Shown here in pieces: positions 1 through 28,663 of a stretch of 30,189 bases of DNA (position 1 is the stretch's first letter; every line of letters starts with the position of its first letter). Made by a program: the position numbers and the translations under genes. Below the pieces are notes generated by a model. The model saw only the letters and a program-made list of their open reading frames with translations. It searched no databases and was not told the origin of the DNA. The stretch is from a virus (taxonomy: Duplodnaviria; Heunggongvirae; Uroviricota; Caudoviricetes). The stretch spans positions 1 to 30,189 of IMG/VR virus record IMGVR_UViG_2663762810_000004; one strand, written 5' to 3'.

Positions 1-1128
1 TTAAGAGGGTATTTTTTGCCATTCTTTACCTCTGTCATCATGATATTTATCTGTTTGATGCTGGGTTTTATGACCCAGCAATTTTTGTGTATCAATTCCC
101 TGGTCTTTGTAAAGACGTTCAGACAATGATCTTTGCTCATGGAATGTAGCGGGTGTTCCATCTCCCCATTTAATACAAGCCTTATCCCTCGCCTTACTGA
201 AATTCATCGTTAATGTGTTCGATTTAACTTGTGCGCCTCGTTTAGCCTGTGATGTAGCTCGGAAAAAGTGAATCAGATAGGGGCTAACTGCATAATCTCG
301 ACAGCGCGCAACGACGTCACGTAAACTCCAGTTAATCGCATTGAGGCGAAGAGAAAGAGGTATAGCAATTTTGCTGCCGGTTTTTTCCTGTTCGATATGC
401 AGATGATCATCCCAGATATCGCTAAATTTCATTTTGGATATGTCACCAAGACGTTGCCCAGTCACAAGGGCAAGCAGCATTGCATTTCCCATATATTGAT
501 GTTTCTTATCTGCGATATCGAAAATCTTCAGCCACTCTTCGAGACTAAGTCGTTGTCTGGTAATCTTGCGCCTGGGCTGTTTAGTAGCAAGGGCAGGGTT
601 GTGACCAGGCGGCACTTCACCGTAGTGTTGGGCCTCTTTGAAAACATCGATCAGTACTGAACGAACAACTTGTGCCATTCTTGGTTGACCTGCAGATAGA
701 TACTCTTCAAGAATTTGAGCAATATCCCTGACATCAACAGAAGATATGAGCTTCATTCCCGCACGTTCCTTAAGAAGTGCAACTGGCTTGGCTTTTTGTT
801 TATACGTATTCTCCTTGATATCACCTGAAGCGAATCTTTCCTCCTGAATTTTCCAGTACCGCTCAAGCCAGGTAACAGTGGTAATTGACTTACCCTTGCC
901 GGTAGCAATTCGATCGCTTATAGCCAGTACCTGTCTTGAACGCTGCTCAGCAAGTCTTGCGTTTGCCTCAGTAGCAATTGCTTTAGCCTCAACTTCATCA
1001 GTACCTAGGCTGTGAAATTTCCCCGTTACAGGATGCTTGTACCTCCAATACACTTTATTGACCTTACGACTGTATAGTGGATAGAGGTTAGGTATTGATA
1101 CATTATTTTTACGTGGTCTCGCAGCCAT
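1..1128 (-). CDS. int: Tyrosine recombinase / phage integrase (lambda Int family). The ORF track extends to 1206, but the likely start is the internal Met (MAARPRK) at 1126-1128.
   Basis: Translation aligns along its length with the recalled lambda Int sequence, including the C-terminal catalytic region (HEQRSLSERLY ... LLGHK). It sits at the prophage edge, overlapping the xis 3' end. Confidence 0.9.
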   Translation of the reverse strand: MAARPRKNNVSIPNLYPLYSRKVNKVYWRYKHPVTGKFHSLGTDEVEAKAIATEANARLAEQRSRQVLAISDRIATGKGKSITTVTWLERYWKIQEERFASGDIKENTYKQKAKPVALLKERAGMKLISSVDVRDIAQILEEYLSAGQPRMAQVVRSVLIDVFKEAQHYGEVPPGHNPALATKQPRRKITRQRLSLEEWLKIFDIADKKHQYMGNAMLLALVTGQRLGDISKMKFSDIWDDHLHIEQEKTGSKIAIPLSLRLNAINWSLRDVVARCRDYAVSPYLIHFFRATSQAKRGAQVKSNTLTMNFSKARDKACIKWGDGTPATFHEQRSLSERLYKDQGIDTQKLLGHKTQHQTDKYHDDRGKEWQKIPS

Positions 1129-1354
1129 CGCTGAGGATCCTTTGCAATTTTGGTGAATCAGATTTCTTGATAACCGGCGCAGCAAGTTCTCCAACCAATT
1201 CCGCATCCTCCCTAACTCTCCAGAGCCTACCTTGCTTCATTGCTGGTGGAGAAAAGAGATTTTGCTTAGCGTAACGGCGCAATGTCGAGACGCTAGGTGG
1301 ATTACTTCTGTATTTATCGGTTGCCCATTCTTCAAGAGTTAACATCTGAATCAT
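1109..1354 (-). CDS. xis: Excisionase (Xis-like small DNA-binding protein)
   Basis: 81 aa ORF immediately upstream of and overlapping int. The LTLEEWA...STLRRYAK...GRLWRV pattern is typical of phage excisionase/AlpA-type HTH proteins. Confidence 0.75.
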   Translation of the reverse strand: MIQMLTLEEWATDKYRSNPPSVSTLRRYAKQNLFSPPAMKQGRLWRVREDAELVGELAAPVIKKSDSPKLQRILSDGCETT

Positions 1355-1399
1355 GCGTTATTCTCCATTTAATAACCCGGCTGCACCCGGCATACGTCA

Positions 1400-1702
1400 T
1401 TATAAATTATCGCTGGTTAGCTTTGGTGGAACAGCATAGAGAGGCCCAGGTGAGACATCAAAACGGCGCCAGCGTATATTACAGGTTCTCTCTTCACCTT
1501 TTTTGTGCCAGGCAACGACATCTGCCACTGGCTCGGCGTTCCTACCTGCCAACACCTCATCTACTACCTTCAACATATCCGCGAGAATGTAAGCTCTGTT
1601 CCCGCCGTTTGAGTACTGGGTATCATGCAGTAGGTGTTCACGTATCTGGTGTAGGCGATCGAGTGATACAGAACCGTTCGCCGGGTGGTTGTTAGTTGTC
1701 AT
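1400..1702 (-). CDS. Hypothetical prophage early protein
   Basis: 100 aa ORF in the leftward operon; its start overlaps the stop of the upstream ORF (coupled arrangement). No family recognised. Confidence 0.55.
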   Translation of the reverse strand: MTTNNHPANGSVSLDRLHQIREHLLHDTQYSNGGNRAYILADMLKVVDEVLAGRNAEPVADVVAWHKKGEERTCNIRWRRFDVSPGPLYAVPPKLTSDNL

Positions 1703-2028
1703 GCTGCCCCCCTACGTTGATGGCCCAGTGCGTGACGCGCTTCTATCGGGTCCTCTTCTTCGTATTCACCATTGACGCTTTTCACCATCGCCACGCAGCA
1801 TTCGTTGCAGCACCGATAGGACATAAGTTCGCCGTCGAATTTCCACGCCGTACTACGGTGAATTTCATCCTTTAAAATTACGCCAGCGCAAATGTGGCAT
1901 TTGTATTCACCTCGAGAGGTAACGATTTTGTTCGATAGTTCTGTATCGCATGGCGTACCGAAATCACCTTCGAAAAGATCAAAGTCCAGTGCGTCGTCTA
2001 AATCCTGTTTGTTGAGTGAGTTAGTCAT
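1699..2028 (-). CDS. Hypothetical Cys-rich small protein, possibly zinc-binding. Start taken at the internal Met (MTNSLNK) at 2026-2028.
   Basis: Multiple CxxC-like cysteine pairs (CHIC ... CCNECC). The ATG at 2026-2028 overlaps the TAA stop (2021-2023) of the upstream gene. Confidence 0.55.
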   Translation of the reverse strand: MTNSLNKQDLDDALDFDLFEGDFGTPCDTELSNKIVTSRGEYKCHICAGVILKDEIHRSTAWKFDGELMSYRCCNECCVAMVKSVNGEYEEEDPIEARHALGHQRRGAA

Positions 2029-2365
2029 TCCAGGCCTCCAGCTCATTCTGAATCTCTTCGTCGATTTCGTCATTGGTGGCGTCTTCGTTCAGATAGGCGT
2101 GCGCCTCTTTGAAATACTTGTCGCGGCGTTCGTCATACCAGGCAGAGAACTCAGGCGACCAGGCATGGGTATGTCCGAAAAAATCGACTCTGGCGTTATC
2201 TTCTGCGAGACGCTCAACCATGCAGTAAGCTGTGATCAAACCGCATTCACGGATGTACCCACGCAGGTCGCGCTTGCGCCAGTACGGGCTATATTTCGAG
2301 TCGCAGCGGCTTTTAAATTCGACAGTCCAGCGACGGATGCAACGTGCGTTCAGTGATTTACTCAT
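2021..2365 (-). CDS. Hypothetical prophage early protein
   Basis: 114 aa ORF in the same leftward operon, with start/stop overlaps on both neighbours. Confidence 0.55.
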   Translation of the reverse strand: MSKSLNARCIRRWTVEFKSRCDSKYSPYWRKRDLRGYIRECGLITAYCMVERLAEDNARVDFFGHTHAWSPEFSAWYDERRDKYFKEAHAYLNEDATNDEIDEEIQNELEAWND

Positions 2366-2616
2366 TGAGTTGCTCCCTGTCTGGCTCTATTCAATAACTG
2401 GTTAAACATCATGGTTAGGCTGTTACTGCACCCAAATGGCATATCGTTAACACGGTATGTTGGAATGCCCTTGCGAACACCTGACTTCACGATCCGGCCG
2501 GTGCCATAGAGTTGCGATAATGCGCCAGCGACCGCGGGTGTCTTTTTGTTCATACCTTTGGCGATTTCACCGCTGGTGGTATTCGGATGAGCCTGGAGAT
2601 ATTCAAATACGGTCAT
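2362..2616 (-). CDS. Small hypothetical protein, possibly winged-helix DNA-binding
   Basis: 84 aa; the N-terminal segment (EYLQAHPNTTSGEIAKGM...) resembles wHTH regulators. Its start overlaps the stop of the upstream small ORF (ATGA). Confidence 0.55.
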   Translation of the reverse strand: MTVFEYLQAHPNTTSGEIAKGMNKKTPAVAGALSQLYGTGRIVKSGVRKGIPTYRVNDMPFGCSNSLTMMFNQLLNRARQGATQ

Positions 2617-2789
2617 GGCGTTTTACCTTTACGTTCCTGTTCCAGTTGCACCAGAGACTCTTTTAATGCTGCGAACGTAGCGTCCAGTCTGGTGGCAACT
2701 TCGCGCATAAGCGGTGCATGCTTTGGTGGCAGTTCAGCAACGGAGGCAAAAGCCTCCGTAACGAGTTCTTTTACCTTCATGCGGCGCAT
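2614..2789 (-). CDS. Small hypothetical protein (about 58 aa), below the ORF-track size cutoff
   Basis: Hand translation of the minus strand gives MRRMKVKELVTEAFASVAELPPKHAPLMREVATRLDATFAALKESLVQLEQERKGKTP. A GGAG lies about 9 nt upstream and the stop overlaps the next start (ATGA). Confidence 0.4.
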
Positions 2790-27699: not shown

Positions 27700-27745
27700 T
27701 TATTCCCCCATTATTCCCCCATTATTCCCCCGTTTCTCCCCATAC
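27700..27745. repeat. Short tandem repeat (ATTATTCCCCC x3, then a degenerate fourth unit)
   Basis: Direct reading: ttattcccccattattcccccattattcccccgtttctcccc. Confidence 0.6.
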
Positions 27746-27761
27746 AAATTTTGAACAATAA

Positions 27762-27790
27762 AAAACCAACCGTAAAAGGTTGGTTTCATT
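27762..27790 (-). terminator. Rho-independent terminator on the minus strand
   Basis: On the minus strand: AACCAACC-ttttac-GGTTGGTTTTTT. Confidence 0.55.
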
Positions 27791-27862
27791 GGGGATTTTT
27801 GGTCCACGAGAGGATTTGAACCTCCGCCCCCCGACACCCCATGATAGCGTGCTAGGTAACAC

Positions 27863-28000
27863 TTAAGAATACTTAGCCAGTACCGAGATAGACTCGGAGT
27901 GGCCAGGGATGGCACCAGCTGCGACGCTTACTATTCCAGCCCAAAGAGTTTCACAGAAGCATGAAGCAAACATTAGGGTACTGCGGAATACTTTATTCAT
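27863..28000 (-). CDS. Possible small hydrophobic/secreted peptide (45 aa: MNKVFRSTLMFASCFCETLWAGIVSVAAG...)
   Basis: Internal start with a good RBS (AAGGAAAAGCCT-ATG); signal-peptide-like N terminus; followed by the conserved tRNA-like element and a terminator. Not verified. Confidence 0.3.
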   Translation of the reverse strand: MNKVFRSTLMFASCFCETLWAGIVSVAAGAIPGHSESISVLAKYS

Positions 28001-28495
28001 AGGCTTTTCCTTATTTACATGATTCATCAAGACGACACTTACAAAACGTAGGAGCGATATGACTGACATTACGATAAGAGCCGGAATAAAAGGCATGCTC
28101 ATGAGAATCGAACTCATGTTACTGGCTAAATACTCTTTGTTGAAAGTTAACAATTTTCTGCACTAATATCAACATGTTTGGCCGCAAGCGCTTCGCCATT
28201 GTGATTTTTTGATAATCATAAGCTGTTGATTCACATGATCTAAAAACTCTAATTTAATGGCGAAAAATTTATGTATATGCATGATTTATATGGATAACAC
28301 GCATGATTTAAAATCCCTTTATCGTGAAAGAGCTGATAGGTACAGGCACTTGTTTTTGCCCTCTAAAACGGTTATCAAAACCAAAAAACACACATTGATA
28401 ATCAATCGGTTAGGGGAATGCTGAAAGCCAGTTGATTTACAATAAAATTATAGAATTATTTTTATTTATCATGTGGTTGTATATGAAGCATCTAA

Positions 28496-28663
28496 CTACT
28501 GTTACGCCACATGGGTTGGACTGAAGCGGCTGACCTGATTGTTAAAGGTATGGAAGGCGCAATCAATGCGAAGACCGTAACCTATGACTTCGAACGTCTG
28601 ATGGAAGGCGCTAAACTGCTGAAATGTTCAGAGTTTGGTGACGCGATCATCAAGAACATGTAA
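28496..28663 (+). pseudogene. icdC: Isocitrate dehydrogenase 3' fragment (icdC-like): duplicated icd C terminus marking the prophage right attachment junction
   Basis: Translation [53 protein letters not shown] matches the recalled C terminus of E. coli Icd; an in-frame stop immediately upstream means it is not a full gene. Confidence 0.85.

Follow-up and report, generated by a model that had tools for sequence, protein, structure and literature searches.

We report that the DNA of IMG/VR virus record IMGVR_UViG_2663762810_000004 (positions 1 to 30,189; this whole stretch of 30,189 nucleotides is referred to as the window) very probably represents a defective lambdoid prophage of approximately 29.4 kb, core to core, which is located in icd and is descended from a temperate siphophage of approximately 51 kb. 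Relative to intact relatives at 99.97-100% identity it has three internal deletion junctions (D1, D2 and D3), in keeping with an earlier model-made reading of the letters alone (the original prediction), which had described a multiply deleted prophage at the icd locus. That reading had also listed an immunity/replication module, an intact capsid, the tail shaft/tape measure and a complete J as lacking, and this is borne out both by Pfam scans and by the three junctions. Specifically, of what is expected in a complete phage, Q, the lysis cassette, the terminase, the portal and the protease are present, and immunity/replication, the full capsid with connectors, tube and tape measure, and the full J with its fibre are missing. 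With the losses at D1, D2 and D3 the element would therefore have no lytic switch, no replication and no virion.

The deletions were mapped using a composite intact reference, generated from ERZ1742005 NODE_55 (loci L096 and L087; related loci are given L numbers throughout) and a human-gut metagenome contig (L111). The window aligns to this composite in three blocks of 99.97-100% identity with two gaps between them. At the first junction (D1, 2813-2818, with the 6-bp microhomology AAAGCG) the leftward early operon is joined to the middle of the DUF968 gene, such that the window corresponds to composite-reference positions 1978-4795 plus 14263-27722 and 9,473 bp have been lost. As read from L096 and L087, the lost segment encodes a 179-aa open reading frame (ORF), DUF2303, YfdP, an S24-peptidase repressor, Cro, a Phg_2220_C replication protein, Dam, RusA, Ant and the N-terminus of the DUF968 protein; hence the immunity and replication modules, which are absent from the window, are present in the DNA lost at D1. 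This junction is corroborated by an unrelated E. coli reference prophage. At D2 (16270-16271, 2-bp microhomology TA) codon 243 of the capsid gene is joined to codon 36 of sodC on the minus strand, with the loss of 8,100 bp that comprise the capsid C-terminus, the head-tail connectors, the tail tube, a chaperone, a 990-aa tape measure, M, Ail/Lom and the 3' part of sodC. Both sides of this junction are found at 100% identity in L111, where positions 1-1703 correspond to window 14569-16271 and positions 9802-12442 to window 16270-18910; moreover, in a comparison of the window with a Klebsiella phage the homology to the intact capsid also stops at 16271. Finally, D3 (18910-18911, 0-1 bp microhomology) joins codon 105 of J to the last ≈100 nt of a tail-fibre gene. 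For the J/fibre region the relative L106 was used as reference, and on this locus (12442 to ≈16888) the loss was sized to ≈4.4 kb, that is, the remainder of J and nearly all of a separate 421-aa tail-fibre gene, which is known from L106. Adding back the DNA lost at the three junctions gives a parental genome of ≈51 kb.

Many of the late genes are full length, as would be expected if the prophage were functional and inducible and the gene losses only apparent, owing to sequence divergence or misassembly. We consider this extremely improbable, since the relatives at 99.97-100% identity carry 22 kb of extra DNA exactly at the three junctions, where the ORFs of DUF968, the capsid, sodC and J are cut, and Pfam scans detected no repressor, Cro, replication, tail-tube or tape-measure domains in the window. 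The junctions also recur in independent assemblies: three loci (L097, L107 and L092) of contig JXWI01000002.1 in GCA_000948905.1 together span the whole window at 100% identity (contig positions 218985-249173), and the same configuration is present at 100% or 99.995% identity in GCA_000948905.1, GCA_018390955.1 and SRR1783866 (Logan assembly). The configuration is thus not an assembly artefact, and a defective prophage is the reading that we retain.

The integration module is located at the left edge of the window, as originally predicted. The int gene (1-1128, minus strand, with its stop codon at the start of the window) encodes a lambda-type tyrosine integrase of 375 aa that belongs to the e14 IntE clade and is 85.8% identical to K-12 e14 IntE over 373 of the 375 aa. 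Two Pfam domains were predicted (Arm-DNA-bind_1, 5e-36, and Phage_integrase, 2e-15), and the catalytic motifs R / H-x-x-R / H / Y are readable in the sequence; the gene appears to be intact. Its start was set by alignment to IntE, which puts it one codon after the start of a 376-aa alternative, and both this and a 401-aa alternative were dropped. The int start is overlapped by xis (1109-1354, minus strand), encoding an 81-aa excisionase (Pfam Exc, 3e-12) that is 85% identical to e14 XisE; both genes are full length. To view the integrase family more broadly we used 80 related loci across Enterobacterales, taken from GTDB species representatives, with integrases that are 54-87% identical to the one in the window (87% being the best identity in this set). 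In 71 of them the integrase gene is followed, on the other strand, by coding sequence for the Icd C-terminus, mostly no more than a few hundred bp past the integrase stop codon, and icd site specificity is general to this integrase family.

At the other end, the translation of 28496-28663 corresponds to the C-terminus of Icd, as had been claimed, and the nucleotide homology to icd begins at 28500. This icd' fragment (28500-28663, plus strand) is host DNA, the displaced original 3' end of icd with 164 bp including the stop codon; it does not differ (100% identity) from the 3' end of icd in the sister genome L095, where this gene is uninterrupted, and its position matches that of K-12 icdC. Alignment of attR (the window), attL (L096 and L097) and the empty site (L095) located the shared att core that the original prediction had proposed to look for, TGTTACGCCA at 28500-28510 (plus strand). 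The first difference between host and phage in this alignment is at 28510 and the icd homology starts at 28500, so the crossover must lie within these ≈10 bp. The host flank follows (28766-30189, minus strand) with iraM (28766-29089, minus strand; 92.5% identical to the K-12 protein), ymgK, ymgL and ycgX (29785-30189, minus strand; 100% identical to the K-12 protein), which agrees with the proposed iraM and ycgX, and the gene order icd'-iraM-ymgK-ymgL-ycgX is that of annotated E. coli genomes.

The intact icd that was predicted to lie upstream of the integrase was found in L097, which is 100% identical to the window: past the int stop come a 205-aa ORF, on the same strand as icd, and then an intact 416-aa icd with its stop codon 727 bp before the start of the window. 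Consequently attL is situated ≈0.9 kb to the left of the window and the element measures ≈29.4 kb from core to core. The proposed extent, 1-28663, therefore holds as a prophage locus and not as its bounds, the start being ≈0.9 kb further to the left and the boundary between phage and host being at ≈28500-28510. The icd 3' copy at attL differs from the host copy by five substitutions in the duplicated 164 bp and the two diverge past the stop codon; the copy fused to icd at attL is a phage-borne surrogate 3' end. The 205-aa ORF between int and the reconstituted icd (L097 11699-12316) occupies the slot where e14 carries ymfD, ymfE and lit, and had no family match in PADLOC, NCBIfam or PHROGs.

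In L095, the empty-site genome (assembly GCA_012817175.1), iraM is directly followed by the uninterrupted icd. Its right flank is 100% identical over 10.3 kb and its left flank has five mismatches in 6.6 kb, all within the icd 3' end; over the flanking 16.9 kb, L095 and the lysogen thus differ at these five positions only. An empty site with a host-type icd 3' end could be what precise excision would leave, and it could equally be a site that was never lysogenised.

Taken together, our data indicate that an e14-type int/xis phage integrated into the 3' end of icd, where it supplied a replacement 3' end at attL and displaced the 164 bp of the host to attR. The integrated phage then underwent three illegitimate deletions (microhomology of 0-6 bp), which removed the immunity/replication region (D1), the head-completion and tail-shaft genes together with Ail/Lom and SodC (D2), and J with the tail fibre (D3). 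The late genes (Q and lysis) are predicted to be silent since pL, pR, the repressor and the N region are gone, and Int and Xis may still be able to excise the element. What has been kept would be the cargo that the host still uses, namely NanS-p, the SdiA-regulated-domain protein, the DUF4145 protein, the isrK/C4/antirepressor module and a low-GC gene pair.

Several points weigh against this interpretation. The terms silent and non-inducible are inferred from gene content. The window itself contains neither attL nor icd, and for that part we rely on the identical sister contigs. The size of D3 is based on a relative at 98.7% identity and not on one at 100%. Moreover, none of the intact references covers 22233-28499, such that any additional loss or gain of DNA in this part would escape notice, and a second phage could be the source of its internal repeats.

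Sister genomes with an identical 10.3-kb right flank show at least five other deletion states of the prophage and one empty site. The states that follow are from these genomes and from other contigs. In GCA_044010595.1 the early region is kept from RusA, Ant and the full-length DUF968 gene rightward (RusA being the leftmost reach of the retrieved locus) and a deletion extends from the capsid to nanS-p. CP057470.1 has a portal-to-sodC and an L-to-DUF1353 deletion, GCA_958326645.1 and GCA_016109105.1 have a portal-to-sodC deletion and a J of 694 aa, and CP057166.1 has a portal-to-J and a J-to-nanS-p deletion. Two differing small deletions were seen in L102 and L100, in which either the immunity region alone or both the immunity and replication regions are gone. 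In addition, L098 and L103 are near-identical phage copies with a different immunity region, in which a 263-aa repressor (HTH_3 plus S24) is encoded together with a YdaS-like protein and a BRCT-domain ORF, a case of module swapping within the phage lineage. This sampling of haplotypes is biased, since phage genes (TerL, L and the 100-aa early ORF) served as the query in three of four retrievals and a host flank gene, IraM, in the fourth.

The genes for int, xis, HNH, TerS, TerL, portal and protease are intact in all sampled variants, which could be taken to mean that the element is a phage satellite or a mobilisable element, a reduced form kept to parasitise a helper phage from which capsid and tail would be borrowed. 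Given the retrieval by phage genes, variants keeping them are favoured in the sample. Reading frames (DUF968, capsid, sodC and J) are truncated at the junctions, the losses differ among the variants as random decay predicts, and neither a replication/primase module nor a satellite hallmark gene was detected in domain and defence-profile scans. Furthermore, at ≈29 kb the element corresponds to ≈57% of the parental genome, which judging from the packaging limits of lambda is probably too small for a cos head. We therefore regard the satellite reading as very unlikely and continue to treat the element as a prophage in decay.

Other haplotypes (L088, L089, L105, L108, L110 and L112) share right-hand deletion endpoints with the window at base-pair precision, with differing left endpoints. 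The reused positions are composite-reference 14263, in DUF968, and 35820, in sodC, and at each of them a DNA hairpin is predicted that has its foot there or close by. For the former, a junction that we refer to as D1' (4839/14263) lies 44 bp from D1 (4795/14263). With the formation of D1' a new copy of the 7-bp sequence TAAAGCG arises at a distance of 44 bp from one already in place, as a direct repeat, and because of this repeat D1 is plausibly a secondary slippage product. For the latter, D2' (25795/35820) and D2 (27722/35821) have the junction TA/CCTGCACC in common with 2 bp of homology only, and the endpoint is at the foot of a predicted sodC DNA hairpin, TACCTGCACCGTCA...TGACGGTCAGG (-8.7 kcal/mol, z = -2.87). 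By a rough count (≈24 endpoints over ≈45 kb) the chance of one such coincidence is about 2%. Slippage is an adequate explanation for D1 and D1' and there is no such explanation for D2 and D2'. Adjacent deletion mediated by insertion sequences was rejected as the cause of the endpoint reuse, no insertion sequence being present at any junction. It is conceivable, if doubtful, that DNA structure or a nuclease directs deletions to the reused endpoints, making them hot spots from which prophage DNA is lost repeatedly to one side, in which case the grounding of the prophage would not be purely random.

What is known about integration into icd is unchanged by these data, which add one more defective lambdoid prophage at a heavily used site; PMC3603311 lists icd as one of the prophage hot spots most often occupied in E. 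coli. The value of the set lies in the availability of intact copies and at least eight deletion haplotypes at ≈100% identity, several of them with identical flanks, such that every breakpoint can be read to the base. The set thereby constitutes a natural time series of prophage decay, with respect to the order of module loss, the microhomology used and the cargo kept. Moreover, some of the kept cargo could affect the phenotype of the host or other resident prophages, i.e. NanS-p, the SdiA-regulated-domain protein, isrK/C4-antirepressor and the low-GC pair.

Among the remaining genes, a remnant of the leftward early operon (1400-2789, minus strand) contains five small ORFs of 100, 109, 114, 84 and 58 aa (matches to phrog_6675, 1687 and 12248), which are also called in sister contigs. 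It is followed by the C-terminal DUF968 fragment (2884-3270, plus strand), 128 aa of ≈331, for which the Pfam match begins at profile position 30; the full-length proteins in relatives have 319-331 aa. The Q antiterminator gene (3292-3981, plus strand; 229 aa, Pfam Phage_antiter_Q 4e-36) is separated from the holin genes by a convergent cargo pair (4145-5934) that stands out in the composition profile with a GC content of 35% and encodes proteins of 283 aa (plus strand) and 239 aa (minus strand), the latter being membrane-like. Neither protein gave anything above threshold in Pfam, PHROGs, PADLOC or NCBIfam (DUF5677 was a sub-threshold Pfam match), and for the 283-aa protein the best hit in a PDB sequence search was at chance level (Mitoguardin 2, E = 0.018). 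The pair occupies the slot of the stx genes in Stx phages.

The lysis cassette (5985-7672, plus strand) comprises two holins, a GH19 endolysin and Rz/Rz1 spanins (Pfam Phage_holin_8, Phage_holin_3_7 and Glyco_hydro_19; PHROG Rz-like spanins). Between the lysis and packaging genes there is a DUF4145 moron (7666-8322, minus strand; 218 aa as called, Pfam DUF4145 8e-11, phrog_1305), the product of which has a weak PADLOC match (E = 0.0026) to the single-gene defence system PD-T7-4 and is possibly an anti-phage defence protein. The HK97-type packaging and head-assembly genes (10224-15466, plus strand) encode HNH, TerS (P27 family), TerL, a 59-aa ORF, portal and S49 protease, all full length and assigned with Pfam. 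Next is the major capsid fragment (15542-16271, plus strand), which has codons 1-243 of 427 and matches positions 1-111 of the 280 in the Pfam Phage_capsid profile only. The sodC 5' remnant (16272-16378, minus strand) has ≈36 codons and maps to the start of the gene for a 175-aa Sod_Cu protein in L111 and L106. In the intact relatives Ail/Lom and a periplasmic Cu/Zn superoxide dismutase are encoded between M and L (L111 8702-9910; L106 8738-9910), and these virulence-type morons have been lost from the copy in the window.

The tail-tip genes L (231 aa), K (247 aa) and I (223 aa) are full length (16469-18526, plus strand; Pfam Phage_tail_L, Prok-JAB plus NLPC_P60, and Lambda_tail_I). They precede the J fragment (18596-18910, plus strand), i.e. 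the first 105 of 1,166 codons within a 129-aa ORF, J being 1,166 aa in L106 and L113; we take its translation to resemble the N-terminus of lambda gpJ. To the right, a DUF4376 tail-fibre assembly-like protein (200 aa) and two paralogous small ORFs (104 and 77 aa) are encoded at 19019-20165 (plus strand; Pfam DUF4376, phrog_1141 and phrog_4772). The following gene (20175-22232, plus strand) is full length and encodes a 685-aa protein (Pfam SASA plus DUF6645; phrog_143) of the type of the NanS-p 9-O-acetyl-sialic-acid esterases. When compared with the PDB it matched 3pt5 (NanS/YjhS) with E = 1e-124 and the NanS-p C-domain 6yp6 with E = 2e-35, and the SGNH/SASA domain together with the NanS-p C-terminal domain places it among the NanS-p proteins as a putative esterase.

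The 3' end of nanS-p is part of a segmental direct repeat, detected by a repeat search and self-matches, in which 21871-23477 is 84-95% identical to 25051-26448 and a partial third copy is present at 24535-24956. Each copy consists of a nanS-p 3' end (shortened in the second, 25051-25383), a short repeat and a DUF1353 gene (22953-23333 and 25923-26303; Pfam). These diverged direct repeats bracket a low-GC moron for an SdiA-regulated-domain protein of the YjiK/SrgE family (23486-24310, minus strand; 274 aa, Pfam SdiA-regulated 5e-72), which has no match in PHROGs. An immI-like module follows (26748-27656, minus strand), with a1/b1 targets, the small RNA isrK (27567-27643), the C4 antisense RNA (27454-27539) and an antirepressor gene (26748-27407) encoding Bro-N and P22_AR_C domains (Pfam). 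In Rfam, isrK scored 79.2 bits (gathering threshold 50), C4 scored 74.9 bits (threshold 45) and the c4-a1b1 targets, with 44.7 bits, fell just below the threshold of 46.7. With a C4-type RNA and its targets directly upstream of the ant gene, the module is predicted to be of the P1-type immI or IsrK-antirepressor kind, and as a surviving switch it could act in trans on other resident prophages; it resembles P1 immI and Gifsy-1 IsrK-AnrP.

No tRNA genes were called in the window. The minus strand at ≈27795-27830 reads as the 3' part of a tRNA, with a T arm (GAGGTTCAAATCCTC), an acceptor strand and CCA, and gave no ARAGORN or Rfam call; the surrounding 85-95 bp (27760-27854) are present twice in an e14-like element of E. 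coli CDF6 (L001 6001-6096 and 7172-7255). The phage side of attR is formed by the P' arm (28365-28499), which is homologous to the right end of e14: the corresponding K-12 region (L114 16780-18608) aligns to window 28365-30189 at 93.9% identity and so reaches 135 bp beyond the icd fragment. These 135 bp of homology are expected since they would hold the arm-type sites of a related integrase.

The right arm also bears on whether the element is a composite of two, in which an older icd prophage would have left the right part (≈22.2-28.5 kb, with both DUF1353 genes, the SdiA-regulated gene, the ant module and the P' arm related to e14) and the left part would be a newer phage that has recombined in. 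The 84-95% identical segmental repeats with the shortened second nanS-p 3' end, the P' arm homology to e14 and the presence of another right arm after the same tail genes in L113 are consistent with such a history. On the other hand, there is a single int/xis pair and a single attL/attR pair, and the right arm is common to every deletion variant at ≈100% identity; lambdoid mosaicism suffices for the differing right arms, and an e14-related P' arm is expected with an integrase that is 86% identical. On this evidence two origins are improbable, and descent from one lambdoid phage is the reading that we carry into the comparison with known systems.

With respect to the host, a megablast search of window positions 1-25000 against 5,426 complete E. 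coli genomes gave no genome with more than 14% coverage, and the best identity of the right flank among the complete E. coli genomes searched was 97.1%. Exact protein matches, in contrast, brought up the prophage in numerous public assemblies. An Escherichia species other than E. coli was rejected as host, the purB-phoP flank of a sister genome being 99.5% identical to that of some E. coli. The host is accordingly E. coli, as judged from these alignments, of a lineage that is missing from the RefSeq complete set searched.

As originally proposed, the body of the element combines lambda- and HK97-like parts with lysis, packaging and tail-tip genes, as supported by Pfam and PHROG assignments. 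The HNH, TerS (P27), TerL, portal, S49 protease and capsid genes are collinear with those of the Klebsiella phages ST846-OXA48phi9.1 and phiKO2 at 77-78% nucleotide identity; in these phages, unlike in the window, the capsid and tail genes are complete and the tail-tip genes are others. The phage phiKO2 is a linear plasmid prophage. The L-K-I tail tip is 72.8% identical to that of Gifsy-2 at the nucleotide level (72-73% to Gifsy-2 and lambda-like phages), and Gifsy-2 also has Ail/Lom and SodC between M and L, as in the intact relatives. The Salmonella prophages Gifsy-1 and Gifsy-2 differ from the element in host, attachment site, head module and immunity region, and sodC and ail are deleted in the window. 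Finally, the Q-lysis region is common to other E. coli prophages at 85-95% nucleotide identity. The element thus reads as a mosaic with an HK97/phiKO2-like head, a Gifsy-2/lambda-like tail tip and the Q-lysis region of E. coli prophages.

By all the tests applied, the integration module belongs to the icd family of e14 and phage 21 and, within this family, to the e14 clade. Phage 21 and the lambda-like icd phages are lambdoid and use the same attB in icd as the element in the window. An integrase clade at ≈59% identity (ev207, 4A7 and others) also adjoins icd in genomes, and at this identity a different arm specificity is expected. For phage 21 and the icd-type integrases PMC3603311 cites Wang et al. 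1997.

The closest comparison is with e14 of K-12, on which Hill et al. 1989 and Mehta et al. 2004 are cited in PMC6379469; the arrangement at icd described there was found here in the same form. Both elements use the same attB position in icd and have an icd 3'-end duplication of ≈164-165 bp beside iraM, their int and xis are 85.8% and 85% identical, respectively, and their P' arms are homologous. Like the element in the window, e14 is a lambdoid that has decayed by deletion, and its terminase and portal remnants YmfN (52%) and BeeE (38% identical) are of the same head-gene type. The rest of the body is unrelated, and in agreement with the original prediction the gene content is not that of K-12 e14. 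Specifically, a tblastn search of 23 e14 proteins against the window gave only IntE, XisE, YmfN, YmfR, BeeE and a weak HNH-motif match to McrA. The possibility that the element is e14 itself was rejected, since the e14 gene set (lit, pinE, a true mcrA and ymfD/E) was not found in this search, and an invertible fibre of the stfE/P type is likewise absent from the window. The element is twice the size of e14 and keeps Q, the lysis genes and the full terminase, portal and protease but has lost its repressor, whereas e14 keeps ymfK, and its cargo of NanS-p, the SdiA-regulated-domain gene and the isrK/C4-ant module is unlike that of e14.

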